A DNA stretch of 64,000 nucleotides from Candidatus Magasanikiibacteriota bacterium (GCA_052033375.1 JBPOJQ010000008.1:1185-65184); one strand, 5' to 3'; positions 12,611-64,000 are shown, counted from the stretch's first letter. The notes: generated by a model from the letters alone, not told the origin. Numbers and translations: made by a program.

Positions 12611-12639
12611 TTGACAAAAATACTATACCATGATAATTA
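12611..12639 (+). promoter_or_regulatory. Putative sigma70-like promoter upstream of GC-rich gene
   Basis: TTGACA (12611-12616) with TGATAATT -10-like element 15-17 nt downstream. Confidence 0.3.
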
Positions 12640-12722
12640 TTTCTATTGGTTTACCATGGGTTATCTGACAACAACGTCAAGCGAATGAACTCACAACAAC
12701 ACACTGAGGGGAGAGTGCACAC

Positions 12723-13400
12723 GTGATTCTCAGATATGCAGAGTATGTCGCACTCCATCAGGAAGCATGCGAAAGGCTTCACATAGAAGCTGGGCGTATG
12801 CTCATGCATGGAGTGACAGGGGATCCTATACTGAACACAGGGAGGATTGTATCGGGGTACATGACTGCACTGGTTCCGAGCAGGGAGATGGCGAATCACT
12901 CCGCGCAGTTGGCAGAGAGGATCGGGGACATGGTGCCCTCCTTCCTGCCGTACCGCGCAGAACAGCTGTGTCTGCCGTTCATGGTGACCAGTGACTGGGT
13001 GAACCCCAGCCTGATCGCTGAATGCGTCGGTGGGGTGTTCGGGAATCTCCATGCGACGAAAGACATGGTGCAACTGCTGTGGACGGGGGCGTTCTGTGGG
13101 AGTCAGCGAGTCTTCGCGACTGTCCTGCCGAATCGAGAACTCTTCTCGATCATGCGAGATGTGGCGCTCTGTGCGCTGTGTCGAGGTATGATGTCCGGAA
13201 ACCCATTCACGGAGATGCATCTCACCCTCGGTCACTTCCGGGAGGCCCTGCCTCGGGAAGAAATCGAAGGTGTTCTCAAGCTCACGGGGAACTTCCATAT
13301 CCAGCAGTCGTTGCAGCCCGCGGCAATCGCGGTCTCTCGGTTTGCAATCGGACGAGAAGATGTCGAAGTCGAGATCGTGGAGCGATTCACGTTCGGCTAG
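12723..13400 (+). CDS. Hypothetical protein in high-GC islet (A)
   Basis: GTG start preceded by GAGGGGAGAG SD; coding region visibly GC-rich versus flanks; plus-frame composition balanced while overlapping minus ORF is His/Arg-rich. Confidence 0.4.
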   Translation: MILRYAEYVALHQEACERLHIEAGRMLMHGVTGDPILNTGRIVSGYMTALVPSREMANHSAQLAERIGDMVPSFLPYRAEQLCLPFMVTSDWVNPSLIAECVGGVFGNLHATKDMVQLLWTGAFCGSQRVFATVLPNRELFSIMRDVALCALCRGMMSGNPFTEMHLTLGHFREALPREEIEGVLKLTGNFHIQQSLQPAAIAVSRFAIGREDVEVEIVERFTFG

Positions 13401-13465
13401 ACCATCTACTCATTCCTGCACAAGCTCGGATGGACGCAGGTCCTGTCACGGCGAGTGTGGGTAGT

Positions 13466-13548
13466 TCTACAAAACCACCCACATATCGCTTGTACTGAGT
13501 ATGCCTCTATAATGAGGATAATCAGTAGAAGTGGTGGGTGGTTTTGTA
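13466..13548. repeat. 15-bp perfect inverted repeat flanking a ~50-nt spacer at the islet boundary
   Basis: TACAAAACCACCCAC at 13468-13482 and GTGGGTGGTTTTGTA at 13534-13548. Confidence 0.6.
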
Positions 13549-13592
13549 TACTGGGTTGTATTTTTCAAGGTAAATGCGTTACAATACGTTTT

Positions 13593-14786
13593 ATGAAAAA
13601 AAAGCTGTTTATTATTCTCATAGTAGTAGTTCTCGGAGTGGCGGGGTGGTATCTATTCCGCACGATATTGTGGTATCGTTCGGGAGATACGGCTCGGGCA
13701 GAAGCACAAGCGCGTGAAGAAGCGATTGATCGGGTATTGGATGCCCGTCGGGTGCGAGTAGAAGAGGGTGTGGCAGCTGATCCATTTGGCAAAGACGGGA
13801 TAGTGCGGGTATTGTTGATTGGGCTGGATAAGCGGGTGGGTCAGACTGCAGGACATTGCGATGTGATTCAGATGATTACGATAGATTCGATACAGAATAA
13901 AATAAATATTACTGCCGTACCACGAGGTACATATTCACCACTTCCGCCAGGGACAGGAGTCACTTCTTCTGATTATTATGTATCAAATGCATGCGGACTC
14001 GCGGGTATTGAATATGGTATTGCACAGATTGAAAAAATTGTAGGAATGAAAGCTGATTATCTCGTAATCGTTGGATTTTCTGAAACACTCGGAGTTCTTC
14101 GGAGTTTGCGTCTGCCTACTACCGAGACACTCCAATGGCTCCGACAGAGACATGTCTATGCAATTGGTGAACCACAGCGCGCCCACAATCATTCTACTTT
14201 TTTGAAACAGATGTTGATTGATTATATTCCAGACGAGCCTTCAAAAATTGATAAAGCCCTTCATTATGTCGTATACAAGATTGTAAAAACCGATTTATCA
14301 TTTGATGAGGCGGAGGCAATCGTCACAGCGCTTACCCGTATGAAGATGTCTGAGCATCCAGATGATATTACACTCTCGATGCGTCCTGCACATAGTGTCG
14401 CTGACATTCCCTATATTCCTGCGGAATTGAAAAAATATCTGGATAGTACGCTCGGCAGAATCAAAGGAAGTTTGTCAAAAGATGATTATAGCGGAAATAC
14501 GGATGATGAAATACAGAGCACATTACGCGCAATGATTGAGGAGAAAAAGAATGATACTCAATTTATTCTGTGGGGGTTTGAAAATAATCTCTGGCTTCAG
14601 ATTGAAGAAGAGCCTGTGCGATTGGCAGTACAATATCAATTTTTAGTCGGATATCTGAATATAGAGAAAGATAGTGCAAAGAGAAAGACAGCGATTACTG
14701 ATTATATACTTGAGATGGAGCATGGCGGGTATGAAGAGTGGGCGTCCAAAGGCAGGGAAGAATTAGCCCGTGAAATAAAAAAATGA
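13593..14786 (+). CDS. LytR-CpsA-Psr (LCP) family cell-envelope phosphotransferase
   Basis: N-terminal TM anchor; LCP core (VRVLLIGLDKR...GHCDVIQMITID...NITAVPRGTY...GLAGIEYGI); ATG 13593 (MKKKLF) chosen over upstream 13455. Confidence 0.75.
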   Translation: MKKKLFIILIVVVLGVAGWYLFRTILWYRSGDTARAEAQAREEAIDRVLDARRVRVEEGVAADPFGKDGIVRVLLIGLDKRVGQTAGHCDVIQMITIDSIQNKINITAVPRGTYSPLPPGTGVTSSDYYVSNACGLAGIEYGIAQIEKIVGMKADYLVIVGFSETLGVLRSLRLPTTETLQWLRQRHVYAIGEPQRAHNHSTFLKQMLIDYIPDEPSKIDKALHYVVYKIVKTDLSFDEAEAIVTALTRMKMSEHPDDITLSMRPAHSVADIPYIPAELKKYLDSTLGRIKGSLSKDDYSGNTDDEIQSTLRAMIEEKKNDTQFILWGFENNLWLQIEEEPVRLAVQYQFLVGYLNIEKDSAKRKTAITDYILEMEHGGYEEWASKGREELAREIKK

Positions 14787-14790
14787 ACTA

Positions 14791-15624: not shown

Positions 15625-16278
15625 TCATTCGTCGTGAGTGTTTGAGTGTCGGATGCATGGCGGGAGATATGCGCTGGCACGGGGAGCAGCATGGAGTTTG
15701 GCACTCAGCACCTTTCGTGCTTTGAGGAGTCTGCCCGCGATGGTTTTGGGAGAAACATCGAGTATGTCTGCGGCCTCTTGGTAGGAAAAACCATACAGAT
15801 CGATCAATGCGAGCGTATTTTTGTGCTTGTCACGCATCGAAGAATTCTGGAGGGCTGTATGCATGATATCTCGAAGTTCCGACAGTTCCGCTTCTTGGTG
15901 TGGGTTGGTTCCATCTGGGTGGGTGTAGTCATTCAGGTCGATTTCGGGCCGGTGTTTCAGACGATGATTCAATAATGAAATTCGTGCGTCGATCGCCACA
16001 TGTTTGGCGATGTGAAAGATCCAGGATGTGAGATTTCGACCATCGAAGCGGGAATGGATGGATTTGAAGACTTTGAAGAAGGTATCCTGTGTCGCTTCTT
16101 CAGCAGTCGGGATGTCGCGAATGATTCCAAGAACGAAGCGGAAAATACCCTTCCAGTAGAGCTGGTAGAGAGCGCGATATACCCGGTTTACCGTGCGCTC
16201 GTCAGGTGCAGACATGAGCGAAGTGTAGATATCCCGCGCACGTGTCGCAGCAGTACTTTTTTTTCTCGGATTGTCCAT
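15625..16278 (-). CDS. ECF-type RNA polymerase sigma-70 family factor
   Basis: Region 2 (FFKVFKSIHSRFDGRNLTSWIFHIAKHVAID) and region 4 HTH (YGFSYQEAADILDVSPKTIAGRLLKARKVL); ATG 16278 (MDNPRKK) preferred. Confidence 0.75.
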   Translation of the reverse strand: MDNPRKKSTAATRARDIYTSLMSAPDERTVNRVYRALYQLYWKGIFRFVLGIIRDIPTAEEATQDTFFKVFKSIHSRFDGRNLTSWIFHIAKHVAIDARISLLNHRLKHRPEIDLNDYTHPDGTNPHQEAELSELRDIMHTALQNSSMRDKHKNTLALIDLYGFSYQEAADILDVSPKTIAGRLLKARKVLSAKLHAAPRASAYLPPCIRHSNTHDE

Positions 16279-19793: not shown

Positions 19794-20480
19794 TTATATT
19801 TCATAAATCACGTCTTTTCGTTCTACGACAGTCTTCCAACCGCGTTGTTTTGCTTTTGCAAATAATTCTTGACTTGGGTTGAAAACAATTGGATGTTCTA
19901 CGAGATTGAGAAATGCTATGCCTCCATTAGTATCTCCAATACCGATAGATCCTTCGAGACTGAGGCCGTGCTCAGTACAGAAATTAGTCAGAGTCTGATC
20001 TTTGATTTCATATGAAGGGAATACGACATCCCCGGTGTAGACTCCATTTTCTGAGCCGTAGATCGTGCCATATGATGTATCAAACTTCCAGTTTTCAGTG
20101 AATGCATCGACAATTTCTCGAGGTGACCCAGAGATTGCAACGAGGAGATATTCTGAACGTAATCGCTCGATCATATCACGGGTGTATACATACACGTGCT
20201 CCATTTTTTCAGCAACAATAAATCTGCTGACTTTTTGTATATCTTCGACTACTTTTCCTTTCAATCGGTTTTGGTACGAAACAATTAATGATTTTTCAAA
20301 GTCGCGATAATGTCCACGGCGGTTGATCCAGTCATCATGATATTCTTCAATTTCTTTCAATACAATTGCCGGGAATATGCCATACTCTACCAATCCTTTG
20401 AACAATTCAAAATGTAAGTTTGATCGAAAAATGGTTCCATCGATATCAAACACGGCAATCTTTTTTTTCATGGTATCCAT
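19794..20480 (-). CDS. HAD-superfamily hydrolase
   Basis: Motif I IAVFDIDGTIF, motif IV GIGDTNGGIAF. Confidence 0.75.
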   Translation of the reverse strand: MDTMKKKIAVFDIDGTIFRSNLHFELFKGLVEYGIFPAIVLKEIEEYHDDWINRRGHYRDFEKSLIVSYQNRLKGKVVEDIQKVSRFIVAEKMEHVYVYTRDMIERLRSEYLLVAISGSPREIVDAFTENWKFDTSYGTIYGSENGVYTGDVVFPSYEIKDQTLTNFCTEHGLSLEGSIGIGDTNGGIAFLNLVEHPIVFNPSQELFAKAKQRGWKTVVERKDVIYEI

Positions 20481-20644
20481 ACGTATATATAGGTATTACA
20501 TATTAAGTGAAGATGCTACAGTATAGCTCATCGTAGGGGTATAGGCAAGTGTAGTGTACGCGTACAACTATTCGATAATTGGGGGGGACACACTGTCGAG
20601 GCGTGGTGCCAGCGACAGTGTGTCTATGGGTACGTCATCGCGGA

Positions 20645-20971
20645 TCAGGCGTCGAGGTAGTGACCTCGGTGCGACTTCGGTTGACCACAGCGGATCTCAC
20701 CCTGCTTGGTCTCGATGTCGTATGTGCCTGTACACGGACGCTTATCGTCCGCGTGACCTCTGATCTCCCACCGCGTGCTACCTCCTTCTTCGCTCCACTT
20801 GAGACTGCCCACCCTCAGGTGAAGAGTGATCAGGTGACCCTGGTCGTCTTCACCGTAGAACGGTACAGTGTCTCCGAAGAACGAACGCGCATTCAGATAC
20901 GCGTGGGCGATGCACGGGCCGGACGGATTTCGAGGGTCACCCGTAATGCGTACAATCAGCTCTTTGGCCAT
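20645..20971 (-). CDS. Hypothetical protein in high-GC islet (B)
   Basis: 108-aa frame starting MAKELIV with AAGGAGAG SD upstream; GC-rich; 12-bp perfect hairpin at 20587-20624 downstream; upstream portion of the 232-aa ORF is low-GC and overlaps a sigma gene. Confidence 0.4.
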   Translation of the reverse strand: MAKELIVRITGDPRNPSGPCIAHAYLNARSFFGDTVPFYGEDDQGHLITLHLRVGSLKWSEEGGSTRWEIRGHADDKRPCTGTYDIETKQGEIRCGQPKSHRGHYLDA

Positions 20972-21157
20972 GCGGCCACTCTCTCCTTGGACGGCATTAT
21001 TGAAAGTCACCTGTTTCCTAAGTATGCCGTAAAACCTAGGGGGTAGTAGCGTAGCATGTTTGGTGATATGAGAAAATATGCCTGTGTGTATAAAAATAGA
21101 ATATGTTACTTTTTGTCTCGGTTGCCGTATACTATATACAGATTTTAATTTTATAGT

Positions 21158-21733
21158 ATGGCTATGGGTTTTTTTGAAGATAAGCTGGTACTGGCGCAAA
21201 AAGGTGACCGTGCTGCTTTTGGCGAAGTCTACGATGGATTTGTAAAGAAACTGTATGACTATGCTTTTTTTCGGGTAAAAAACAAACAATCTGCCGAAGA
21301 TATTGTCGCAGACACATTCATGAAAGCACTTGAGCATGTGCACTCATTTGATCCGAACAAAGGTTCTGTCGCTTCATGGCTGTACCGAATAGCGAGAAAC
21401 ACGTTGGTGGATCACTATCGAATAGGCAAGAAAACAACTGGATTTCCCGAAGATTTTGATGTGGTAGATACAACGGATTTGAAAACACATATAGAAAATA
21501 AAGACATGCTCAAAAAAGTGGAAATTGCATTGAAAAAATTATCAGAGCGCGAACGTGAAATTATTACACTGCGTGTATGGGACGAACTTTCGTACAAAGA
21601 AATTGCTGAGGTGCTGGGAAAAAGTGAAGCCAGTCTGAAAATGGCTGCCTCCCGAGCTTTGAAGTCGCTTCGAAAAGAGTTACCGTTGGGGGTATATCTA
21701 GGGATTCTCTTAGTGATGAGTAATAAGTTATAA
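21158..21733 (+). CDS. ECF-type RNA polymerase sigma-70 family factor
   Basis: Region 2 (IVADTFMKALEHVHSFDPNKGSVASWLYRIARNTLVDHYR) and region 4 (ITLRVWDELSYKEIAEVLGKSEASLKMAASRALKSL). Confidence 0.8.
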   Translation: MAMGFFEDKLVLAQKGDRAAFGEVYDGFVKKLYDYAFFRVKNKQSAEDIVADTFMKALEHVHSFDPNKGSVASWLYRIARNTLVDHYRIGKKTTGFPEDFDVVDTTDLKTHIENKDMLKKVEIALKKLSEREREIITLRVWDELSYKEIAEVLGKSEASLKMAASRALKSLRKELPLGVYLGILLVMSNKL

Positions 21734-21865
21734 GTAATAAGTAATAAGTGGCAAGTGAATACAATTTATTTTCTAACTTACAACTTATTTGTTACTGCCT
21801 ACTACTGATTACGTAGTACAAGTGTAAGGATATCCAATGTATTAATATAATGTACTAATCATAAT

Positions 21866-23392
21866 ATGGAAAAAAATATTCAATTCATTCTTGATGAGCT
21901 CTACCAGATTGATCCAGAGTTGAAAAATCATCAAGTAGAAATCGCACAAATAGTTGATACTATGATGAAAAACAAGCCACACACGCAATTCGATGAGAAT
22001 TTTGCCCGTGAACTGAAAACAAAAGTACTTGAAAAGTTTTCTCACGGGATTACGACAGAAAAAAAGCCGTTCTCATTTTTTAGATCAAAATTTGTCTATA
22101 CACTCAGTGGTGCGCTCGCAACACTTGCGATTGCACTGCCGATTGTGTATGTGACGTCAGGAAACATCTCGAATCAATGGGTAAAAAATAGTTTTACAGG
22201 TGGAACACAGGTCGTACGAGCTGAGGCAAATGCATTTGGTCCATTATCACCAGTGACAGCGAATGTGAATACTGCTGAAAGTGCGACTGATGTAGCGGCT
22301 CCGATGACAGCTGGTATGGGGGGTGATGCAGCTAAGATCAGCGGCACGTCTCTCTTGTATAATCCAGAATATATTAATTATCATTTTGTATTTAATGGAG
22401 AATTGCCCGAAGTGGGTGATAGTATCGAGGTATTGAAACGTGAATCAGGAATTGATGCTGCGAAACAATATGCAGGAATACTACAAAAAATAAAATTAGG
22501 TATTTTTGATCTGGGAAAAGTACAACAGGCACGAGTACAAAACTTTTCTCTTGCTGAAGACCGAGAACAGGGTTATATAATAAATGTGGATATGATTGGA
22601 GGAACAGTATCGATTTCAGAAAATTACTCTGCATGGGCGTGGCGTTCAGCGCGACCATTCATCGAATGTAGTGCCGATTCTTGTGTTGATCCGAATAGAA
22701 TTACGATTGATGAAGTGCCTGAAGATGCCGAATTATTGAAAGTTGCTGATGAATTTTTGAAAGAATATGGGATAGACATGAGCTCGTATGGCACGGGGAA
22801 GGTAGATACTCGTTGGAGAATTGGATATGAACGTGCAGAAGATAAGGATGCATTCTATATCTCAAATATACAGACTATCATATACCAGCTGATGATTGAC
22901 GACATGCCTGTCTATGAAGAATATGGTGAGCCGATGGGTATCCGAGTGAATGTCAATGCGACTGAGATGAGAGTAACCAATGTCGATGGAATTATGACAA
23001 AGAAATTTAGCGCATCTTCCTATGTCGGAGAGACTAATGATGCACGCCTTCGTGCGCTGATTGAAAAGGGGAGAATGGTCGCATATGATCAGCCTACTAA
23101 GACAGTAGAAGCAGAGTTAGAAAATGCAAAAAAAGGATATATGCGCCGGTGGCAATACAATGAGAGTAACGGAATTTCAAGTGAAATATTTGTTCCTGCA
23201 ATTGTGGTCGAGGTAAAAGATTTTGAACGATTGCAGGGCGAGGGACTGTGGCAGAGTAATATCGTCATTCCGCTTGCAAGTGAAATGTTGACCGAGCTTG
23301 AAAAGCAAGCAGAAGAACCTATACATATCATGCCATTTGATGCGACACTGAAAGACGCGGTGAGTGAGCCTGCGGTAGAGCCACGAGGCTAA
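21866..23392 (+). CDS. Single-pass membrane protein with large extracytoplasmic domain, candidate anti-sigma factor
   Basis: Directly downstream of ECF sigma gene; cytoplasmic N-terminus, one TM (LSGALATLAIALPIVYV), ~400-aa outside domain. Confidence 0.4.
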   Translation: MEKNIQFILDELYQIDPELKNHQVEIAQIVDTMMKNKPHTQFDENFARELKTKVLEKFSHGITTEKKPFSFFRSKFVYTLSGALATLAIALPIVYVTSGNISNQWVKNSFTGGTQVVRAEANAFGPLSPVTANVNTAESATDVAAPMTAGMGGDAAKISGTSLLYNPEYINYHFVFNGELPEVGDSIEVLKRESGIDAAKQYAGILQKIKLGIFDLGKVQQARVQNFSLAEDREQGYIINVDMIGGTVSISENYSAWAWRSARPFIECSADSCVDPNRITIDEVPEDAELLKVADEFLKEYGIDMSSYGTGKVDTRWRIGYERAEDKDAFYISNIQTIIYQLMIDDMPVYEEYGEPMGIRVNVNATEMRVTNVDGIMTKKFSASSYVGETNDARLRALIEKGRMVAYDQPTKTVEAELENAKKGYMRRWQYNESNGISSEIFVPAIVVEVKDFERLQGEGLWQSNIVIPLASEMLTELEKQAEEPIHIMPFDATLKDAVSEPAVEPRG

Positions 23393-23395
23393 GAA

Positions 23396-23437
23396 TAAAA
23401 ACATCCCGGTTTAAGTCGGGATGTTTTGTTTTTTTTA
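23396..23437. terminator. Bidirectional rho-independent terminator
   Basis: AAAACATCCCG-GTTTAAGT-CGGGATGTTTT flanked by A- and T-runs; between convergent genes. Confidence 0.75.
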
Positions 23438-24079
23438 TTCGGTAATTACACATGTTCCATTATTGTAGGCTTCGGTTAGTGGGTCATTTAGTTGATCTTC
23501 ACCATCTAAGGTTACGTTGCTTGAGCCGCTACTGCTCCCTTTAAATGTTGAAGTCACATTTTCGTTCTCAATATCAACTGTACCTTCAGCTTCAAACCCT
23601 ATGCCCGCTTCAATAGTAATTTCTTCTGCAGATAGTAATTTTTTATAATATTCAGCAATCACAACTCGAGTATTTTGATCATAGTTACATACCGCATGTT
23701 CATTGTATTTACTATTAGTTTCTTCTATCGTTTTACATTTGCCATTCACCATACCGACTATTTCTTTTTGGAATTTATACTCGGGGTTTAATAAAAATGG
23801 GTGTAAACATGTATACGGTGTGCAACTTTTTAATTTATCAGGAAATAAGTCGCAGTTAGAAGCTATGTTAGATTTAGGAGATACTTGTAGAGGTATTTCA
23901 GTTTTTTTAGTAGTTTCGGTACTGGTGGATAATAATGTTGAGGTAACATGCAAAGTTGTAGTAGTATTTTGCTGAATTTCAACTGGTGCCTGTTTTTTCG
24001 GTTCTTCAGTTCTGGTATTCGTGTTGCATGATGCACCTAGTAACAAAAAACATGTGCTAATTAAAATTTTTTTGTACAT
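23435..24079 (-). CDS. Secreted Cys-rich protein (putative lipoprotein)
   Basis: Signal peptide with LLGASC lipobox-like site, Thr-rich linker, 8 Cys in mature part. Confidence 0.45.
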   Translation of the reverse strand: MYKKILISTCFLLLGASCNTNTRTEEPKKQAPVEIQQNTTTTLHVTSTLLSTSTETTKKTEIPLQVSPKSNIASNCDLFPDKLKSCTPYTCLHPFLLNPEYKFQKEIVGMVNGKCKTIEETNSKYNEHAVCNYDQNTRVVIAEYYKKLLSAEEITIEAGIGFEAEGTVDIENENVTSTFKGSSSGSSNVTLDGEDQLNDPLTEAYNNGTCVITE

Positions 24080-24163
24080 ATATATTATACAAGAATATTT
24101 AGTAATTTCATTTACAAGTTGATACTACTCTTCGATATATGACACTGTCAAGTTAAACACATT

Positions 24164-24436
24164 GTGCATTTTCAAGTTTTAGTTTATCCTAGGTGTTATA
24201 TGCACCCAAATTTTTGGAAATATTTTGCGATTATCAGCGTTTCAGCTTGTATCCTTGTTATTGTTACATGGCTACTCTGGCCTTCTGGTTCGACTGGGTC
24301 AGAAACCAAAAATGAATTACGAACCGAAGAAATGGTTGAAGAAATTTTAAAAGCAGAAGAACCCATACATATCATGCCATTTGATGCGACACTGAAAGAC
24401 GCGGTGAGTGAGCCTGCGGTAGAGCCACGAGGCTAA
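24164..24436 (+). pseudogene. Chimeric gene fragment: capA-like 5' end fused to duplicated 3' end of gene 21866-23392
   Basis: N-terminal 35 aa (MHPNFWKYFAIISVS...) paralogous to CapA-like start at 25088; C-terminal 27 aa identical to the end of 21866-23392, with the same terminator. Confidence 0.55.
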
Positions 24437-24470
24437 GAATAAAAACATCCCGGTTTAGTCGGGATGTTTT
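24352..24470 (+). repeat. ~120-bp direct repeat copy of 23308-23430 (gene 3' end plus terminator)
   Basis: Near-identical apart from one substitution and a 1-nt indel in the terminator loop. Confidence 0.8.
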
Positions 24471-24541
24471 GTTATGTGAAATGTAGGGGCCGTCATGCGC
24501 GATATGGAAGTATATGCACGCATGACGGGAATTCAGCGGAC

Positions 24542-25024
24542 TCAGAGGAGTTCGAGAATCTTGGCGAACAGCGCCCGGAGATCGAACACGCCTTTGTCAT
24601 TGGTCATCGCGATCTCTGTCAAGCACTGGGTCGGCAGATCATGTGACCGACTGAATGCCGGGGTGTGGTTGTAGACGCCGGCGAAGGTGCGTGGAGGGTT
24701 CTCTTCGTCGAATTTCCGAGACATCATCGTCATACCCCCACCTCCACTCGTTTCCTGGATCAGGATGAAGGCGCAGGTCGAATCGAGCGGGATCATGCCG
24801 AGCACACGAAACGTCTGGTGAGTGTAGTCGCACACACGCCCGTCGTCATAGACGAAGCGTACAGTGAAGATCGGGTGAGTTCCACCTGTGTGCATGGAGT
24901 AGTACAGACTGGTGACGAGTTCGTCCCAGCCAGACCCTGTATTGATGATGAGTGTGAGCACGCGTTGCTCCTGTATGGCTTGTTGTGTCATTCGATTGGA
25001 GCACATGAGAGAATAGCACTCCAT
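24542..25024 (-). CDS. Hypothetical protein in high-GC islet (C)
   Basis: GC-rich segment with long ORFs on both strands; minus frame looks more protein-like; 10-bp hairpin at 24490-24528 downstream; no clear SD. Confidence 0.3.
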   Translation of the reverse strand: MECYSLMCSNRMTQQAIQEQRVLTLIINTGSGWDELVTSLYYSMHTGGTHPIFTVRFVYDDGRVCDYTHQTFRVLGMIPLDSTCAFILIQETSGGGGMTMMSRKFDEENPPRTFAGVYNHTPAFSRSHDLPTQCLTEIAMTNDKGVFDLRALFAKILELL

Positions 25025-25087
25025 TAGGAAAAGACTACCACACTTAGTGATTTTGTAAAGAAGATGAGTGTGTTATACTAAAATTCT

Positions 25088-26239
25088 ATGCATCCAAACT
25101 TTTGGAAATACTTCGCGATTTTAAGCGTTTCACTCACCGGCGTAGCGGTTATTATTGTTTGGTTGTTTTGGCCATCCAGCCCATCAGATTCTAGTAACAG
25201 CAGTCCACGTGTCAGTAAGACGACTATTGAAGAAAATAATGGCGATGTCGTGCCGATAGTCCCAGAAAAAGATAGATTGAAGATATTCGCAGCAGGGGAC
25301 ATCATGCTCGATCGCACCATGCTCCTCTTGGCACAAAAACATAACGATTTCGGATATTCATTTCGAATGATTTCCTCTACATTACGGCAAGCTGATCTTC
25401 GTGTAGTGAATCTCGAAGGACCTATAACCACAAATAAATCTATTTCAAATGGCGAAGGGGGTGCCCGATTTAGTTTTACGTTTTCACCAAAAGTCACCTC
25501 AACACTCAAAGAAAATTTTGACGTCGTGAGCCTTGCGAATAATCACACCACAAATTTCGGATTCGAAGGTCTAGAACAAACCAAAAAGTTTCTTGACGAA
25601 GCAGGAATAGAGTGGTTTGGTGATCCGAATAATCGAGCAGGGCAACAACTTTCGGTAATCGTGGAAAAAAATGGATTCAAGATTGGATTTGTGGGGCATC
25701 ATCAATTGATTGAAAGTGGATTTGAAAATGTGCTAGCAGAAGTGCAAAAAATTCGTCCCGAGGTAGATATCATTATTGCTTATCCGCATTGGGGAGTCGA
25801 GTATGTGACGACCACCCCCTCACTGCTCCAAGAAAAAGAAGCTCATGCATTGATAGATGCAGGAGTCGATATGGTCATTGGTGCACATCCGCATGTGATT
25901 CAGCCTGTGGAATTATATAAAGACCGGATAATTTTTTATAGCCTAGGAAATTTTGTGTTCGATCAATATTTTTCACTTGAAACCATGCAAGGATTGTTAC
26001 TTTCATTAGAATTAGAAAAAGATACTGAAAATATTGATACAAGAATTACTTTAATTCCTGTACATATCAGCAAAGAAAGTCAGCCCGCGGTGGCGGGAGC
26101 TGTTGAGAGGGAAGATATACTGTCATTAGTAGGGAGAGTGTCGATCGGGGATGAGGTATTCAGAGAATCGGTCAAAAATGGTGTCTTATCTGTGACTATA
26201 CCACATCAGAAAACAGAGACGATTATTCCTATGAAATAA
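25088..26239 (+). CDS. CapA/PGA_cap-family metallophosphoesterase (poly-gamma-glutamate capsule synthesis protein-like)
   Basis: N-terminal TM; motifs AAGDIMLDR, NLEGPIT, SLANNHTTNFG, AYPHWGVEY, GAHPHVIQ, GNFVFDQ. Confidence 0.75.
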   Translation: MHPNFWKYFAILSVSLTGVAVIIVWLFWPSSPSDSSNSSPRVSKTTIEENNGDVVPIVPEKDRLKIFAAGDIMLDRTMLLLAQKHNDFGYSFRMISSTLRQADLRVVNLEGPITTNKSISNGEGGARFSFTFSPKVTSTLKENFDVVSLANNHTTNFGFEGLEQTKKFLDEAGIEWFGDPNNRAGQQLSVIVEKNGFKIGFVGHHQLIESGFENVLAEVQKIRPEVDIIIAYPHWGVEYVTTTPSLLQEKEAHALIDAGVDMVIGAHPHVIQPVELYKDRIIFYSLGNFVFDQYFSLETMQGLLLSLELEKDTENIDTRITLIPVHISKESQPAVAGAVEREDILSLVGRVSIGDEVFRESVKNGVLSVTIPHQKTETIIPMK

Positions 26240-26305
26240 TATTGACACCTGAGAGGTAGTATCAGTATACTACTCAAATAATTTATTTTTTTATCATATA
26301 CCTAT

Positions 26306-26722
26306 ATGTACAGATTGAGTATTTTCGTCGGCGCGCTTCTCCTCCTCGGTGCAGGATGTTCGTCATATGTAGAGACAGACACACGCCCTGAATCTACCAC
26401 ATCGTATAGTGAGACAAAAGAAATCGCCCCAACAGAGGTGAATAGTACTGATACTAAAACACCTACTGATGCATCGACTGGTACTACCACCTTTACACTT
26501 GCAGATGTCGCAAAACATAATACAAAAGATGATTGCTATACTACAGTGCGTGGGTCGGTGTATGAAGTGACTTCCTGGATTTCGAAACATCCTGGAGGTG
26601 AGAAAGCCATAGTGTCTCTCTGTGGAAAAGATGGTACTGCAGTATTTGAAGGAAAGCATGGAGGACAGCCACGACCTGAGAATGAACTTAGTTCATTCAA
26701 GATAGGTACATTAGTGCAGTAA
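26306..26722 (+). CDS. Cytochrome b5-like heme-binding domain lipoprotein
   Basis: Lipobox LLLGAGCSS, Thr/Ser-rich linker, b5 fold with HPGG motif (FTLADVAKHNTKDDCYT...SKHPGGEKAI). Confidence 0.65.
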   Translation: MYRLSIFVGALLLLGAGCSSYVETDTRPESTTSYSETKEIAPTEVNSTDTKTPTDASTGTTTFTLADVAKHNTKDDCYTTVRGSVYEVTSWISKHPGGEKAIVSLCGKDGTAVFEGKHGGQPRPENELSSFKIGTLVQ

Positions 26723-26819
26723 GATTATATCGTAATAAAAGAAAAACACCGACAAATCGGTGCTTTTCTTTTGTACCCGCTAATGCTAGAATGAGCATAT
26801 TCAATTTTAAAATAATTCT

Positions 26820-27230
26820 ATGAGCTTTATCCAGGATTTCAAAAAATTTGCCATGCGAGGAAATATGATCGATATGGCTGTCGGTATTATTATTGGGGGT
26901 GCGTTTGGAAAAATTGTATCTTCGCTCGTGAATGATGTGATTATGCCTCCGCTCGGGTATATAATTGGCGGAGTAGATTTCAAGAATCTGAAAGTTGTAT
27001 TAAAACCAGAAGAAATTAATGCAGTGGGTGAGGTGGTGACACAAGCAGTGTCTTTCAATTACGGCATGTTTATTCAAAACGTGATTGATTTTTTGATTAT
27101 TGCCCTTGCGGTATTTATGATGGTAAAGATTGCAAATAAAATGGCAAAGAAAAAAGAACCAGAACCAGCGACTCCACCAAAACAAGAAATGCTACTAGAA
27201 GAAATTAGAGATCTATTGAAGAAACAGTAA
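26820..27230 (+). CDS. mscL: Large-conductance mechanosensitive channel
   Basis: MscL signature [33 protein letters not shown], second TM, charged C-terminal helix. Confidence 0.9.
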
Positions 27231-27315
27231 ATTTTCTAAATTAGCTGAGTTAAATTAGCAATTTTAGCATCTCAAGCCTTTTGAGCATCCTAAGCTTCTC
27301 TAGCCTGTATTAACT

Positions 27316-28953
27316 ATGAAAGCATCAGAATTATTCGTCAAAGCACTAGAACATGAAGGGGTGGAATATGTGTTTGGTATTCCTGGGGAAGAGAATTTGG
27401 ATTTTTTAGAAGCACTTAGTCATTCATCGATAAAACTTATTGTTACGCGCCACGAACAGAGCGCAGGGTTTATGGCAGCTACGTACGGGAGGCTAACTGG
27501 AAAAGTGGGGGTGTGTCTTTCAACCCTTGGTCCGGGAGCCACCAATCTGGTCACCGCAGCAGCATACGCGCAATTGGGTGCAATGCCCATGCTCATGATT
27601 ACCGGACAAAAGCCGATTAAGAAAAGCAAACAGGGACATTTCCAAATTGTCGATATAGTACAGATGATGCGACCTCTCACGAAATTCACCAAGCAAATCG
27701 TACATGCGGAAAATATTCCAGCGCGTGTCCGGGAAAGCTTTAGGATCGCGGTAGAAGAGCGTCCGGGTGCGGTACATCTCGAATTACCAGAAGATATTGC
27801 TGCAGAAGAAGTCGGAAATATAGAATTATTTGAAATAAATCAGGTGAGGCGTCCGGCAGCAGAAGACAAAGCTGTCATGCGTGCGGTCAAAATGATTGAA
27901 GAATCAAAACACCCCTTGATTTTAGTTGGAGCCGGGGCAAATCGAAAATTAGTGAGTAAATCGCTTGTGCGATTTATTGAAAAAACAAATATTCCATTTT
28001 TTACCACCCAAATGGGAAAAGGAGTAATTGATGAATCGCATCCGATGTATCTTGGGTGCGCGGCACTTTCAGCAAATGATTATCTGCACTGCGTGACTGA
28101 TCGCGCTGATTTGATTATCAATGTGGGGCATGATGTTGTCGAGAAACCGCCTTTTTTTATGAACAAAGAACAGAAAGTTATTCATGTGAATTTTTGTTCA
28201 GCACATGTTGATGCAGTGTATTTTCCACAATGGGAAGTAATAGGCGACATTGGAAATGCTCTCTGGCAAATAGCTGAGCGTATCACTCCACAAAATTGGG
28301 ATACGAGTTATGCGTTCAAAGTAAAATCAGAATTGTTCCAAAAAATGGATAGTGAGATGAATGAAATCTCTTTTCCATTAAAACCTCAATCAATTGTAAA
28401 AACGGTTCGAGACGTGTTGCCACGAGATGGAATACTGTCCCTCGATAATGGAATGTATAAATTGTGGTTTGCGCGGTACTTTCCTGCATACGAAAGAAAT
28501 ACGATACTCCTCGATAATGCGCTTGCGACTATGGGGGCGGGATTACCTGGTGGAATTGCAGCAAAACTCGTGAATCCAGAAAAAAAAGTCATTGTCGTTG
28601 CAGGAGATGGGGGATTTATGATGAATTCTCAGGAATTAGAAACAGCACTTCGACTCAGACTCGATCTGGTTATCCTTATTCTGAATGATAATGGATATGG
28701 TATGATCAAGTGGAAACAAGAAAGTCAGAAGATGACTGATTTTGGATTAAGCGTTGGCAATCCTGACTTTGTAAAATATGCTGAGAGCTATGGCGCACAT
28801 GGATATCGAGTTTCTGAATCAGAATCTGTGCGTTCACTATTAGAAAAAACGATTTCCATACCAGGAGTTCATGTGATTGAAATCCCGATTGATTATAGTG
28901 AAAATTACAAAGTGTTTACGAAAGAGTTACAGGATAAAGTGTGTCCTGTGTAG
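27316..28953 (+). CDS. Thiamine-pyrophosphate-dependent acetolactate-synthase-like enzyme
   Basis: N-terminal TPP-pyrimidine domain (VFGIPGEENLDFLEAL), central FAD-like domain, C-terminal GDG...NDNGYGMI; substrate specificity not resolvable. Confidence 0.75.
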   Translation: MKASELFVKALEHEGVEYVFGIPGEENLDFLEALSHSSIKLIVTRHEQSAGFMAATYGRLTGKVGVCLSTLGPGATNLVTAAAYAQLGAMPMLMITGQKPIKKSKQGHFQIVDIVQMMRPLTKFTKQIVHAENIPARVRESFRIAVEERPGAVHLELPEDIAAEEVGNIELFEINQVRRPAAEDKAVMRAVKMIEESKHPLILVGAGANRKLVSKSLVRFIEKTNIPFFTTQMGKGVIDESHPMYLGCAALSANDYLHCVTDRADLIINVGHDVVEKPPFFMNKEQKVIHVNFCSAHVDAVYFPQWEVIGDIGNALWQIAERITPQNWDTSYAFKVKSELFQKMDSEMNEISFPLKPQSIVKTVRDVLPRDGILSLDNGMYKLWFARYFPAYERNTILLDNALATMGAGLPGGIAAKLVNPEKKVIVVAGDGGFMMNSQELETALRLRLDLVILILNDNGYGMIKWKQESQKMTDFGLSVGNPDFVKYAESYGAHGYRVSESESVRSLLEKTISIPGVHVIEIPIDYSENYKVFTKELQDKVCPV

Positions 28954-28960
28954 TATCCGT

Positions 28961-29081
28961 GTCATTTCGAGTGAGGAGTGCAACCGACGATTCGAGGAAT
29001 CCCTTGTGTAAAGCAAGACTGGCTTAATGCAAGGGATTCCTCGACTCCACTACGCTACTGCTTCGTTTTGCTCGGAATGAC
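28961..29081. repeat. Nested palindromic element, copy 1 (GTCATTYCGAG...CTCGGAATGAC)
   Basis: Outer near-inverted repeat GTCATTTCGAG/CTCGGAATGAC enclosing perfect 14-bp CGAGGAATCCCTTG (28993-29006) / CAAGGGATTCCTCG (29030-29043); intergenic. Confidence 0.6.
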
Positions 29082-29095
29082 AAATACCAAATACT

Positions 29096-30460
29096 ATGCC
29101 CATAATCTCCCACAATCCAGCACTAGGTAAGGATATTCAAAAATTCGAAGAGCTGACAGATGAACAAGTGCAGAAAAAAATTGCACAGGCGCAATCTGCT
29201 TTTGGTGTATATAAAAAATTGCCGATAGAAAAAAGAAGTGAGATGTTGAAGAGAGTTGCAGCGCATCTTCGGGAAAACAAAGTAACATACGGAACACTGA
29301 TTACTGAAGAAATTGGCCGACCACTCGCTCCGTCTATTGCTGAGATTGAAAAATGTGCACTTACTTGTGAGTATTATGCAGAACATGGCCCTGAGATGCT
29401 CCAGCGCGAAATGGTTGCAACTGACGCGAAAGAAAGTTATGTGTCACTCGAGCCACTAGGAATTGTATTTGCAGTGATGCCATGGAATTTTCCATTCTGG
29501 CAAGTGCTTCGGTTTGCTGCGCCTGCACTCATTGCTGGAAATGTTGGTCTACTTAAACACGCTTCAAATGTACCTCGATGTGCCGAAGCAATTGAAAAAA
29601 TATTTATCGAATGTGGATATGGCGAAGGAATATTTCAGAATTTGTTTGTAAGCGGTGGACGCACCGAGATCATTATCCGCGACCCACGGGTCAGAGCTGT
29701 CACGCTGACGGGAAGTGAATGGGCGGGTAGAAAAGTGGCAGAAATTGCAGGAGATGAGATAAAACCTGCAGTTTTAGAGCTTGGCGGGAGCGATGCATTT
29801 ATCGTGCTTGCTAGTGCGGATATAGAACAAGCTGCAAAAATTGGTGCTGCTGCTCGGCTCCAAAATTGCGGACAGAGCTGTATTGCAGCAAAGCGATTTA
29901 TTATTGAAGAATCGGTATACGATAGATTTTTGGAATTATTTACCGCTGAATTCAAAAACTATATTCCGGATGATCCGACGAAAGAAGGTGTATTGATTGG
30001 TCCGATTGCGTCACAATCAGGATTGGAGGAGGTGGAAAAGCAAATAGTGTCATCAGTTGAAAAAGGAGCACGAGTGGTGATTGGAGGAAGTAAAATACAA
30101 AAGCCAGGGTATTTTTATATGCCTACTATTTTGACTGGAGTGAAATCAGGAATGCCTGCATATAACGAAGAAATTTTTGGGCCAGTCGCGTCGGTTATCA
30201 AAGTAAGAGATGAGGTCGAAGCAATCAGCGTTGCAAATGATTCGCCCTTTGGGTTGGGGAGTTCTTTGTGGTCAAATGATCGAGAACAGGTCGAGCGATT
30301 GATACCGCAAATCGAAGCTGGATGCGTATTTGTAAATTCAATGGTAAAATCAGACCCACGACTTCCGTTCGGTGGAATAAAAAAGTCAGGAATAGGGCGC
30401 GAACTTTCATATTTTGGACTTCGGGAGTTTGTAAATGTAAAAACTGTTTCAATTCAATAA
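29096..30460 (+). CDS. NAD(P)-dependent aldehyde dehydrogenase (succinate-semialdehyde dehydrogenase-like)
   Basis: ALDH fold with catalytic LELGGSDA (Glu) and NCGQSCIAAKRF (Cys). Confidence 0.8.
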   Translation: MPIISHNPALGKDIQKFEELTDEQVQKKIAQAQSAFGVYKKLPIEKRSEMLKRVAAHLRENKVTYGTLITEEIGRPLAPSIAEIEKCALTCEYYAEHGPEMLQREMVATDAKESYVSLEPLGIVFAVMPWNFPFWQVLRFAAPALIAGNVGLLKHASNVPRCAEAIEKIFIECGYGEGIFQNLFVSGGRTEIIIRDPRVRAVTLTGSEWAGRKVAEIAGDEIKPAVLELGGSDAFIVLASADIEQAAKIGAAARLQNCGQSCIAAKRFIIEESVYDRFLELFTAEFKNYIPDDPTKEGVLIGPIASQSGLEEVEKQIVSSVEKGARVVIGGSKIQKPGYFYMPTILTGVKSGMPAYNEEIFGPVASVIKVRDEVEAISVANDSPFGLGSSLWSNDREQVERLIPQIEAGCVFVNSMVKSDPRLPFGGIKKSGIGRELSYFGLREFVNVKTVSIQ

Positions 30461-30568
30461 AAAGTTGTATAATAGAACACGGATTGGACAAATCGTACGG
30501 AATAAAGACAGAATAAATTCTGCACTAATTCTGTGAGATTCTGTCTGATCCGTGTTCTATTTTAAGAT

Positions 30569-32504: not shown

Positions 32505-33041
32505 ATTCCAACAATAAATGAATGGAAAGAGCTTCGAGCGCTTCGCCTTGAAGCTCTCAAAAAAGAACCTCATGCATTTAAAAAAAGTTATGCAGATGAA
32601 GTGACTGTGAATAGTAGACAATGGCAAGAGAGAATTAATCAATCATGTGAACCTCATTCACATGATTTTTTTATTGTGGCGAAAATAGACAATAATAGTA
32701 TCGGTATTGTAGGTGCTGAAAAAAAATCAGACACTATCTGGACTCTAAAGGAGGTATACGTACGGGATAAGTATCGTGGACAAGGTATTGGTCGGCGACT
32801 ACTCGAAGCAATTATCTGGAAACTCGATCATCAATACAGTGCTCAGATAATCGAACTCAGAGTAAATACGAGACAGGAGGCAGCGATTAATTTATATAAA
32901 AAATGTGGTTTTAGTATTGTTTCTACGATTGAAAATCAGGAGTCAGGCGATGGTAATCGATATACCAAATTTAACATGTGTCGGAAACGTAGTAGGGTAC
33001 ACGTACAATCTCTCGAGCAGAAAGCTTTTTTGACAAAATAA
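32505..33041 (+). CDS. GNAT family N-acetyltransferase (start uncertain)
   Basis: CoA-binding RGQGIGRRLL; conserved N-terminal block WKELRALRLEALKKEPHAF lies in frame upstream of first ATG (32601), open back to a stop at 32460 with no ATG/GTG/TTG; ATT at 32505 is the nearest possible start. Confidence 0.5.
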   Translation: MPTINEWKELRALRLEALKKEPHAFKKSYADEVTVNSRQWQERINQSCEPHSHDFFIVAKIDNNSIGIVGAEKKSDTIWTLKEVYVRDKYRGQGIGRRLLEAIIWKLDHQYSAQIIELRVNTRQEAAINLYKKCGFSIVSTIENQESGDGNRYTKFNMCRKRSRVHVQSLEQKAFLTK

Positions 33042-33094
33042 TGAGACTAGGGTTTTATATCCCAGGGTTCTCAACACCGTGGAAGGAGCACAAG

Positions 33095-40933: not shown

Positions 40934-40953
40934 ATATATATAAAACCTGCTAC

Positions 40954-47245: not shown

Positions 47246-47395
47246 AGGGGTATTAATTATGAACAAGGGTTAGTATAGCAAAGAATTCATGAGTGCTCCA
47301 ATATGGAACAAAGGACTTTGGCAAAAGAGCTAGATTGAGCTATATAAAGAATAGATTAAGCCGGAATTAGCCGGTAAAAGGAAGGGGGTTCGTTA

Positions 47396-47533
47396 TGTTC
47401 GAATGGCTGCATGATCTGTGGGAAAACTTGGTGGCTTTGGCGGGGATCGTCATCTTCGGAGGAGTGGTCGTCATCGCCTTCGGTCCCAAGCGTGTTCTCG
47501 TGCTAACTCACGCACTGTTGACCATGAGGTAGT
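47396..47533 (+). CDS. 45-aa hydrophobic peptide in mini high-GC islet
   Basis: GGAAGGGGG SD 6 nt before ATG; MFEWLHDLWENLVALAGIVIFGGVVVIAFGPKRVLVLTHALLTMR; GC-rich; hairpin terminator follows. Confidence 0.3.
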
Positions 47534-47559
47534 TCCGCACGTATCGACCGAAGGATGGT

Positions 47560-47592
47560 AGCCCCTGTATCTCAATACAGGGGCGTTCGTTT
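47560..47592 (+). terminator. Rho-independent terminator after the mini-ORF
   Basis: CCCCTGTA-TCTCAA-TACAGGGG then CGTTCGTTTTTT. Confidence 0.7.
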
Positions 47593-47653
47593 TTTATGTT
47601 GCATTTTATTTACTTTTAGCTCTTTTTCTGCTACGATGTGGATACTTTATACT

Positions 47654-62703: not shown

Positions 62704-62784
62704 TCTAAAGTCAAAAAGTCTATAAAGTCGAAAGTGAATACAAATCCGTTTTAATCCGTTTGATCCGTGTTCTATTAGCTAGCT

Positions 62785-63204
62785 ATGATAAATTTCAAAA
62801 TAGTTAAACCCGAGGGCATTGTCTATTCAGACGAGGCTGTAGAAAAAGTAACTATTCCCACAAAGGAAGGATATATTACGGTTTTACCACACCATGTTCC
62901 TCTCATTACCATACTTGATGCAGGGGAATTGATTGTATTCAAAAAAGATCATGAAGTACCGATTGCAGTCTCGGGCGGAGTAGCTGAAGTGCGGAAGGAT
63001 AATACAGTCTATATCTTAGCGGATAGCGCAGAGCGAGCAGAAGAAATCGATCTTGAACGAGCTGAAGCTGGGCGTAAACGAGCAGAAGAATTACTTGCAG
63101 CAGAAGAGAAATCTGCAGACGTCGACTTCGCACGTGTACAAGCTTCGCTTGAAAAAGAAATGAATCGCTTGCGTATTGCGAAGAAGTACAAGCCGACGAG
63201 ATAA
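62785..63204 (+). CDS. atpC: F0F1 ATP synthase subunit epsilon
   Basis: N-terminal beta-sandwich and C-terminal helical hairpin; operon position. Confidence 0.85.
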   Translation: MINFKIVKPEGIVYSDEAVEKVTIPTKEGYITVLPHHVPLITILDAGELIVFKKDHEVPIAVSGGVAEVRKDNTVYILADSAERAEEIDLERAEAGRKRAEELLAAEEKSADVDFARVQASLEKEMNRLRIAKKYKPTR

Positions 63205-63217
63205 AATTATTTTACAA

Positions 63218-63246
63218 AATAAAACTCCCCAATTTGGGGAGTTTTA
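63218..63246 (+). terminator. Rho-independent terminator of the atp operon
   Basis: AAAACTCCCC-AATT-GGGGAGTTTT. Confidence 0.8.
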
Positions 63247-63321
63247 TAATTGACGAGATGTATTTTTTGTGTTGTAATGTCGTCGCCTGAATTTCCAGGT
63301 GATCAGAAGGAGTCTTCGCAC

Positions 63322-63774
63322 ATGTCATCCACTACGCCTAGAAGACCGTGTATCTGCGGACCGTCGGCAAAATTGCCGATCGACCTGCGGGACACGGTAA
63401 ATGAGTTCTACTCGAAGCTCGCGGACATCTGCGAGCAGGTTCTCGGAGCTCGTGCACACATGAAGCACGAGGGTAGACGTACGAACGTGGACGAGAGGGA
63501 ACGCATACTGAAGTATACGTCCCTTCTCGTGGTCGTCGCGATCGCAGAGGACTATGATACCGGGATCTTGGTCGAAATGGCCGACAGATACCTGGTGCCG
63601 GTCGTCATCCTCTGCGAACAGAGCGCGCTGGAGACAAGCCGGATCTCCGAGCGCATCTCGCCTCTGCTGCTGGGAAATCCCGCAGTCAGAGGAGTGATCG
63701 CGTACAAAAGCTTCGACGAAGCTCTCAAGCTCTTCACGGACTGGCTCAAGACGAATCGTTCGGAGATCAGTTAA
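63322..63774 (+). CDS. Hypothetical protein in high-GC islet (F)
   Basis: AAGGAG SD 8 nt before ATG 63322 (MSSTTPRRPCICGP...); GC-rich; GCGAATG-CACTCT-CATTCGC hairpin and AGCAGC..GCTGTTTTT element downstream. Confidence 0.35.
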   Translation: MSSTTPRRPCICGPSAKLPIDLRDTVNEFYSKLADICEQVLGARAHMKHEGRRTNVDERERILKYTSLLVVVAIAEDYDTGILVEMADRYLVPVVILCEQSALETSRISERISPLLLGNPAVRGVIAYKSFDEALKLFTDWLKTNRSEIS

Positions 63775-64000
63775 GAGAGAGCTGGGGGTCATGGAAATCA
63801 GGGGTGTCGCGAATGCACTCTCATTCGCACGCTCCAAAAGCAGCTTTATATAAGGCTGTTTTTGTTTTCATGGTATACTTATATGCATTATGCAACCATC
63901 CGAAGTTACCAATAAACAAGTATTACAATTATTTTGGAAATATTTACGATCGAATAAGGCCGTATTTTTTACGTCAACTGTTTCTGCGCTAGTGTGGAAT

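Follow-up and report, generated by a model that had tools for sequence, protein, structure and literature searches.

Seven GC-rich, Shine-Dalgarno-led single-gene islets in a Candidatus Magasanikiibacteriota chromosome and their possible acquisition by horizontal transfer

A 64,000-nt stretch of chromosome from a Candidatus Magasanikiibacteriota bacterium (GCA_052033375.1, JBPOJQ010000008.1:1185-65184), here called the window and numbered from its first nucleotide, carries seven short GC-rich islets, A to G, spaced 4-16 kb apart with core genes in between. Each holds a single small open reading frame (ORF) of aberrant codon usage that is preceded by a Shine-Dalgarno (SD) site, in a genome whose core genes use neither. 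We lean towards the view that the islets are unrelated, horizontally acquired small accessory genes, organized as moron-like expression units and turned over by homologous recombination without a capture machine. Each islet would form its own expression unit, consisting of a short ORF with a long leader and a strong SD before it and a stable 3' hairpin or terminator behind it, in a chromosome of the Patescibacteria (candidate phyla radiation, CPR) whose genes are AT-rich at synonymous sites and appear to start without an SD.

Composition and coordinates of the islets

The seven modules are listed with their strand and parts, the GC content of the islet and the GC content at third codon positions (GC3) of the ORF.

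Islet A, 12611-13486, + strand: GTG-initiated ORF 12723-13400 (225 aa); candidate promoter TTGACA-N18-AATTAT 12611-12640; SD GAGGGGAGAG 12706-12715; 3' hairpin 13456-13483; 56.9% GC, GC3 0.67.
Islet B, 20587-21075, - strand: ORF 20645-20971 (108 aa); leader 20972-21075; SD AAGGAGAG ~20981-20988; 12-bp 3' hairpin 20587-20624; 58.1% GC, GC3 0.65.
Islet C, 24490-25030, - strand: ORF 24542-24961 with GTG start (139 aa); SD AGGAG 24968-24972; leader extending to a conserved CTTTACAAAAT box at ~25050-25062; 3' hairpin 24490-24528; bidirectional terminator 24442-24470; 54.9% GC, GC3 0.70.
Islet D, 33029-33443, + strand: ORF 33095-33340 (81 aa); TTGACA box ~33029; SD GGAAGGAG 33081-33088; 17-bp hairpin ~33390-33430 followed by a T-run; 59.3% GC, GC3 0.74.
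Islet E, 37462-38021, + strand: GTG-initiated ORF 37564-37950 (128 aa); promoter-like TTGACT-N17-TAGTAT 37462-37490; SD AGGAG 37550-37554; hairpin 37958-37991; terminator 37998-38021; 54.0% GC.
Islet F, 47380-47596, + strand: ORF 47395-47532 (45-aa hydrophobic peptide); SD GGAAGGGGG 47380-47388; intrinsic terminator 47561-47596; 54.3% GC, GC3 0.72.
Islet G, 63250-63870, + strand: ORF 63322-63774 (150 aa); -35-like TTGACG 63250; SD GAAGGAG 63306-63312; hairpin ~63801-63833; terminator 63836-63870; 56.1% GC, GC3 0.72.

The initial annotation of this DNA had judged the islets to be GC-rich by eye, and computation bore this out: the islets span 54.0-59.3% GC against a window mean of 41.7%, values reached by 0.2-4.8% of same-length windows when the islets themselves are counted in. 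In the proposed frames, A, B, C, E and G had GC3 of 0.64-0.72, and D and F were as high after frame correction; 20 large core ORFs had 0.27-0.44. Codon adaptation was calculated with 43 core genes of the window as the reference; the islets scored 0.49-0.59 (z -7.9 to -4.4, islet A being the -4.4), below every core gene (0.72 +/- 0.03, minimum 0.661). The coordinates first given were broadly right, save that F lies at 47395-47532 and not at 47396-47533, and that the ORF of C, drawn as 24542-25024, likely starts at GTG 24961. No similarity was detected among the seven islet proteins, as the initial annotation had also claimed, and no DNA motif is common to the seven modules. Islet A and both its junctions recur at 100% identity in an independent assembly (L001, sample SRR34217543, another run), and the islets are thus not assembly chimeras.

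Shine-Dalgarno sites and 3' hairpins

An SD of 5-9 nt at a spacing of 6-10 nt precedes all seven islet ORFs. In the region 2-17 nt before the start codon, even a 4-mer SD match was found for just one of 45 core ORFs of the window (Fisher's exact test, islets vs core, p = 6e-8), and the SD is absent also from operon-internal core genes such as those of ATP synthase. This goes beyond the earlier claim, which had credited six islets with an SD and found none for C; that islet has AGGAG 6 nt before GTG 24961, a start that corresponds to the ATG of its orthologues in loci L004 and L040 (loci, contigs and genomes used for comparison are denoted by L numbers). The same contrast is seen in relatives, where gene calls from seven related loci showed a loose 4-mer SD before 12 of 123 low-GC3 genes, approximately the chance level, and AGGAG- or GGAGG-type sites before most GC-rich ORFs. 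Several low-GC accessory genes of the window, namely the CBASS-type (cyclic oligonucleotide-based antiphage signalling system) nucleotidyltransferase gene (8880-10268), the AAA_13 gene, the gene at 23435 and the RimK-like gene, have no SD and core-like codon usage; high GC and the SD therefore travel together and are not a general mark of accessory genes. High GC3 with aberrant codons and a strong SD are two independent, co-varying foreign signatures. A full-text search of the literature on Shine-Dalgarno sites in CPR/Patescibacteria found no description of such a coupling of GC-rich codons to SD.

From the sequence upstream of their starts, translation initiation of core genes in this lineage appears to be SD-independent. 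The core genes are AT-rich before their start codons (for example the starts at 1143, 10278, 57299, 59278 and 61336) and often have a TATACT-type -10 box just 10-35 nt ahead of the ATG. On a 53% GC contig carrying a homologue of G (L023, 1314-11158), ribosomal protein genes also lack an SD, and strong GGAGG sites are found at the G homologue and at nearby small ORFs, a split in SD use without a contrast in GC.

A stable hairpin lies at the 3' end of all seven islets (z -2.3 to -7.1 vs shuffles; D, -3.8), as the initial annotation had noted. In C, E and G a GC-rich hairpin is followed by a separate U-tract terminator. Sigma-70-type promoter matches were found 73-82 nt upstream of A and E; D and G have TTGACA/TTGACG boxes upstream, with -10 elements that fail the scan rule.

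Coding status

The proposed frames show periodicity of GC by codon position, and the start codon of every ORF lies at the proper distance from an SD. An exhaustive HMMER protein search against 1.84 billion representative proteins, with F left out of the query, returned two homologues for B, one each for C and D, ~30 remote homologues for E and ~45 for G. For A it returned only A itself, as did a word-indexed search of 5.8 billion proteins. A is thus an orphan. The earlier statement that the islet proteins have no recognisable homology does not hold for E and G, nor does it for B, C and D, whose orthologues occur in related genomes. The seven proteins gave no Pfam, PHROGs or PADLOC matches. Orthologues of B, C and D have GC3 of 0.54-0.69 vs 0.23-0.44 in neighbouring genes, and most are SD-led; dN/dS (the ratio of nonsynonymous to synonymous substitution rates) is 0.30-0.41 for B and 0.39 for C. 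Islet A, having no homologue, is the least certain to be coding, its case being made by frame statistics and the SD alone.

Because GC-rich DNA is poor in stop codons, the ORFs might be spurious, lying in structured non-coding RNAs or in assembly chimeras. This would fit the long ORFs present on both strands of several islets, the exceptionally stable predicted folding of A, B and G (z -4.9, -4.4 and -6.7 vs dinucleotide shuffles), and the occurrence in relatives of GC-rich spacer segments without a convincing ORF. We consider it very unlikely, given the codon-position periodicity, the SD-spaced starts, dN/dS below 1 in B and C, the protein homologues of B, C, D, E and G, the confident AlphaFold2 models obtained for E and G, the absence of Rfam matches for the islets, and the recovery of A in a second assembly.

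Folding was examined further across orthologues. A z score below -2.5 was obtained for nine of 23 islet ORFs and one of 12 controls, and folding was uneven among orthologues (z +0.8 for B in L034, +1.5 for C in L040). Because of this inconsistency, mRNA structure was rejected as a general cause of the GC richness. Depletion of A residues by a diversity-generating retroelement was likewise rejected, as the sign of AT skew differs between islets.

The GC-rich spacer segments of relatives (50-60% GC; L004 20164-20631, L006 19630-20071, L007 19912-20325, L031 423-764) do not occur in the window. They are conserved across frames, have no convincing ORF and no Rfam match, and are candidate unclassified non-coding RNAs.

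Distribution of the islets among relatives

Proteins encoded in the window group with proteins that carry the name Candidatus Magasanikbacteria at NCBI, and syntenic loci were taken from eight related Ca. Magasanikbacteria assemblies. None of the relatives covering the spacers of A, F and G carries these islets, and distribution is patchy for these three and for C, D and E; all seven are atypical in GC3 and codon usage. The spacer of A, between DUF6629 and LytR genes, is occupied in L004 and L007 by low-GC membrane-protein genes. The spacer of F is empty in four relatives (L009, L011, L031 and L032) and holds an unrelated GC-rich 189-aa ORF in L010. Islet G is a 620-bp unit set between two terminators; L009 and L010 have no G, and their ABC transporter gene comes immediately after the ATP synthase epsilon gene (~60 bp apart in L010). 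In L009 (6889-8546) and L010 (7013-8627) the full operon is moreover closely preceded by an additional, incomplete set of the ATP synthase a, c and b genes, which neither the window nor L031 has.

Islet C, between a 508-aa gene and a PGA_cap gene, has GC-rich orthologues in L004 (82-84% aa identity) and L040 (56%). The same spacer is empty (60 bp) in L006 and L007 and holds an unrelated GC-rich 179-aa ORF in L005. Pairing in the 3' hairpin of C is retained by a compensatory change in L040. The spacer of D, between GNAT and YibE-F genes, has a D homologue (43% aa identity) in L006 only.

Islet B is the most widely shared. Homologues occupy the same spacer, between HAD and sigma-factor genes, in L005, L006 and L007 (28-31% aa identity to the window copy, 59-69% to one another), and L034 has B of the window's allele type there. 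In the nearest relative, L004, it was lost through a clean ~530-bp deletion, and a paralogue lies at a different spacer in L009. The locus thus comprises, in at least five genomes, two alleles only ~30% identical behind one type of ~100-nt leader. Within this leader a CCUCC-like stretch pairs with the SD, and the inner hairpin pairing is kept via compensatory changes in L034; no Rfam family matched it. The leader (20972-21075, - strand), kept in five genomes, is a candidate riboswitch or RNA thermometer. GC3 is 0.58-0.68 in all copies of B despite flanking genes that are saturated at synonymous sites. The synonymous divergence (dS) of B itself among L005-L007 is 0.5-0.8, below that of its flanks, which could indicate synonymous constraint or more recent exchange between lineages.

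An ECF-type (extracytoplasmic function) sigma factor gene (15625-16278, - strand) has 49% GC, GC3 of 0.54 and a codon adaptation z of -3.7, with GAGG before the likely ATG, and is poorly conserved or absent among relatives. It may be an older member of the islet class.

Islet E lies in a larger accessory segment, whose elements are as follows.

Accessory island, 35987-40556: RimK-like ATP-grasp gene 36124-37368 (- strand), islet E, AAA_13 ATPase gene 38170-40428 (- strand).
tRNA-Asn(GUU) gene with group I intron, 40557-40960, - strand: Rfam Intron_gpI at 85 bits, 40609-40909; exons read directly.

This 4.6-kb island abuts the 3' side of the tRNA-Asn gene and is missing from L031 and L032, which have 69 bp between the flanking gene and the tRNA instead. 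Within it just E is GC-rich and SD-led. No integrase gene and no duplicated tRNA 3' end were found, and the island edges share only an 11-nt A-rich repeat. The tRNA-Asn gene, missed by ARAGORN, has its ~300-nt intron after the anticodon; it is 92% identical to L031 3790-4191, and L032 matches only 42 nt around the 5' exon.

The description of the islets as standing alone between unrelated housekeeping genes accordingly needs amendment for E, which is inside an accessory island, and applies only in part to A and C. Relatives also carry further GC-rich, SD-led, hairpin-ended units that are not in the window, for example a 73-aa gene at L031 2183-2404.

Gain and loss of the islets

The insertions of C and G are precisely defined against empty sites, and no target duplication or direct repeats were found at their mapped edges. 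The modules have no end motif in common, their 3' hairpins share no sequence, and no transposon ends were found at the islets, in agreement with the initial annotation. No attC-type pair (RYYYAAC...GTTRRRY) was detected on either strand in the 170 nt that follow each of the seven ORFs. No tyrosine recombinase was identified among 47 ORFs scanned against Pfam, and no integrase lies beside any islet; the only sign of a recombinase is the Zn-ribbon fragment of a serine recombinase, which neighbours the CBASS-type genes at 0.7 kb from A.

These results bear on the proposal, raised in the initial annotation, that a cassette-capture mechanism not previously described had placed the islets. Single ORFs that each end in an imperfect hairpin, and spacers filled by different genes in different genomes, would be expected of integron-like cassettes or of some site-specific capture system of another kind. 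The lack of attC core pairs, of a common end motif, of target duplications and of a tyrosine recombinase tells against it, as do the scattering of the units, which do not form arrays, and the promoter-like boxes or long leaders that several possess. We regard it as the least probable of the explanations considered, and as largely refuted by these results.

Divergence of the surrounding genes was estimated as dS between the window and L004. Values were 0.19 for the 508-aa gene, 0.21 for C, 0.55 for PGA_cap, 0.81 for transketolase and 2.2 for the HAD gene. Across 19794-32452, dS thus varies more than tenfold among adjacent genes, which makes the genome a recombination mosaic. In the spacer of C, at 23310-24473, the last 120 bp of the 508-aa gene are duplicated (23310-23430 and 24353-24473), and the copies bracket a low-GC 214-aa gene (23435-24079, - strand) and a 5' fragment of PGA_cap; a chimeric ORF (24164-24436) joins the PGA_cap fragment to the duplicated 3' end. 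We read the duplication as a scar of single-crossover (Campbell-type) integration. Together, the mosaic dS and the duplication point to turnover of the islets by homologous recombination, and the clean deletion of B in L004 is in keeping with this route. Gain, loss and swapping of alleles would then most likely proceed by ordinary homologous recombination in flanking core genes, as at the hot spots of transformable bacteria, and a dedicated site-specific capture system would be unnecessary.

Protein families of islets E and G

Protein E was modeled with AlphaFold2 from its family alignment at a pLDDT (predicted local distance difference test) of 94.5, and the model had no structural match among predicted viral proteins. 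A scan of Joint Genome Institute (JGI) metagenomes with a reduced family alignment yielded one real locus. E-family genes are SD-led and match their surroundings in composition in contigs of 62% GC (L044) and 65% GC (L042); in genomes of 39-44% GC they form islets of 62.6% (L025), 54% (the window) and 51% (L019) GC.

Five of 43 G-family members match PF05014, and window G itself has no Pfam match. A family profile searched against PDB sequences found BlsM and MilB/BcmB-type hydrolases (BlsM, MilB-type CMP hydrolases) at 5e-5 to 4e-3. The AlphaFold2 model built from the family alignment (pLDDT 90.7) matches DNPH1 and BcmB at TM (template modeling) scores of 0.5-0.7. By these profile and model matches protein G belongs to the nucleoside 2-deoxyribosyltransferase-like superfamily, with a predicted flavodoxin-like fold. 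Window G lacks ~11 residues of the conserved 'PHEH.DP' region and has Cys in place of a near-invariant Tyr; a hairpin with 19-nt arms (63491-63530) coincides with a deletion in window G relative to the protein family. In a 39% GC genome (L043) the family member shows no elevated GC, and that in 53% GC L023 matches its surroundings, so GC richness is not intrinsic to the G family.

Origin of the islets

Horizontal transfer at different times from higher-GC, SD-using lineages is the most likely source under the explanation that we favor; we infer this direction of transfer as the most economical one from the co-occurrence of two donor-type signals, the strain-specific islets and the GC gradient of the E family. 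A, F, G and the E island would be strain-specific arrivals, and B, C and D older ones that related species have in the corresponding spacers. The literature documents horizontal transfer of single genes, for the most part between Patescibacteria (PMC12455944). A foreign origin is plausible, if unproven. The repeated foreign acquisition suggested in the initial annotation is supported in part, by the two foreign signatures, by the absence of A, F and G from relatives, and by the E family being at home in contigs of 62-65% GC; it fits less well for B, C and D, which are resident in relatives. Neither a recent single donor nor the host as donor found backing, as external homologues reach only 44-56% identity at best, none was found for A, and nothing similar turned up in phage and plasmid collections.

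Phage morons, or remnants of degraded prophages or defence islands, would also be autonomous units with their own promoter or leader, ORF, terminator and odd composition. The presence of E in a tRNA-adjacent island with an AAA_13 ATPase is compatible with such a source, as is the predicted fold of G, which resembles nucleotide N-glycosidases and is also used in nucleotide-modifying and defence contexts. So are the CBASS-type nucleotidyltransferase gene and the serine-recombinase fragment, situated 0.7-4 kb upstream of A. None of the islets, however, has phage structural or integrase genes beside it, and the islets have no PHROG or PADLOC matches. No relatives of C, E and G were found in IMG/VR, in a scan that reaches close relatives only; tblastn searches of E and G against GenBank phages and PLSDB plasmids were negative, E resembles no predicted viral protein in structure, and the flanks are conserved core genes in every relative. 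A phage origin is rated unlikely. The segment upstream of A (8511-11986) comprises tRNA-Gln, the CBASS-type gene, which encodes a CD-NTase (cGAS/DncV-like nucleotidyltransferase) with an AGS-C sensor domain, two unannotated ORFs and the Zn-ribbon fragment (11276-11986, - strand), and is probably a low-GC defence islet.

Several findings sit poorly with transfer from outside. No donor was identified in the searches described above, where outside identities peaked at 44-56% and A had no match. Orthologues of B, C and D keep GC3 of 0.58-0.70 and the SD even though their flanks are synonymously saturated; relatives have these three islets at the same sites, in a form that is still GC-rich and SD-led and has not been normalized. 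Polarized third-position changes in B and C numbered 23 GC-to-AT vs 16 AT-to-GC, where neutral decay to the host composition predicts ~3.4:1, in a weak test with small counts and a saturated outgroup, which gave an artefactual AT-to-GC excess for AT-rich control genes. The SD of B lies within a conserved, predicted regulatory leader and so would be in use in the lineage and not a fossil. These observations suggest that selection maintains the GC richness and the SD, which transfer followed by amelioration does not predict.

The islets could on this account be a native gene class maintained by selection, in which GC-rich codons, structured leaders, SD sites and hairpins serve translational control or mRNA stability. 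We hold this to be possible, at clearly less than even chances. It draws on B, whose two deeply diverged alleles, GC-rich and sharing one SD-sequestering leader, occupy one spacer across at least five genomes; on C, syntenic at 56% identity, still GC-rich and with a co-varying 3' hairpin; on the near balance of third-position substitutions; on the unusual structure of the A, B and G mRNAs and the excess of well-folded islet ORFs over controls; and on L023, where SD-less ribosomal genes and an SD-led G homologue coexist without a GC contrast. It is weakened by the absence of A, F and G from all relatives examined, by the inconsistency of mRNA structure among orthologues, and by the lack of any regulatory motif linking the seven modules. 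The E and G families, moreover, occur in genomes of very different GC and match their surroundings in L044 and L042 (E) and in L043 and L023 (G). A more specific and somewhat more doubtful version is that GC-rich codons, a strong and sometimes sequestered SD and a 3' hairpin define a separately translated class of small genes, a translational 'second channel' kept by selection. If so, the channel could be switched via anti-SD availability or by ligand- or temperature-sensing leaders like that of B.

Relation to known systems and significance

The islets may be compared with four kinds of known accessory unit. Phage morons, reportedly described in 2000 by Juhala, Hendrix and their colleagues, are said to be autonomous genes of deviant composition between conserved genes. 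Like the islets they have their own upstream signals and a factor-independent terminator, and different genes are found at the same junction in different genomes. The islets differ from them in lying in a cellular chromosome between housekeeping genes, with no phage genes or homologues found, and in departing from the host also in the translation-initiation signal. Oliveira, Touchon and colleagues reportedly described in 2017 chromosomal hot spots without integrases ('genomic islets') that are filled by recombination in flanking core genes; these share with the present islets variable content between core genes, the lack of integrase and transposase, and recombining flanks. The islet units are 0.3-0.9 kb in length, hold one gene and are uniformly GC-rich and SD-led, whereas the hot spots of that study reportedly tend to be bigger and mixed in composition.

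Integron cassettes and CALINs (clusters of attC sites lacking integron-integrases) similarly have a short ORF followed by a hairpin-forming element, and interchangeable content. The islets have no attC cores, arrays or IntI, and several have promoter-like boxes or long leaders, unlike integron cassettes, which typically have no promoter of their own. tRNA-linked genomic islands resemble the E island, which borders a tRNA gene on its 3' side and which close relatives lack. The E island has neither an integrase nor a duplicated tRNA 3' end, and this comparison applies to one of the seven islets.

In translation signals the nearest parallel is with SD-poor genomes of the Bacteroidota type, which contain few SD-led regulated genes, an example being rpsU autoregulation in Flavobacterium. 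The window is similar in its SD-less bulk and small SD-led minority, and the SD of B can be sequestered; here the minority consists of GC-rich, poorly conserved accessory genes and not of a ribosomal-protein regulator. The islets may accordingly be described as moron-like single-gene islets at recombination hot spots, whose oddest trait is the strict coupling of GC-rich codons to the SD in a genome that uses neither.

Patescibacteria have tiny genomes and depend on other cells, and little is known of the way in which they obtain new functions. Two signals, GC3 and the ribosome-binding site, would make the flexible part of a Magasanikbacteria genome readable. New genes would come in one at a time, each a complete expression unit, at spacers with frequent recombination, and the split between an SD-less core and SD-led islets may serve as a simple marker for such genes in other CPR genomes. 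The window also provides an uncharacterised protein family, that of E, with a confidently predicted fold and no structural match, and a predicted, unclassified SD-sequestering leader upstream of B.

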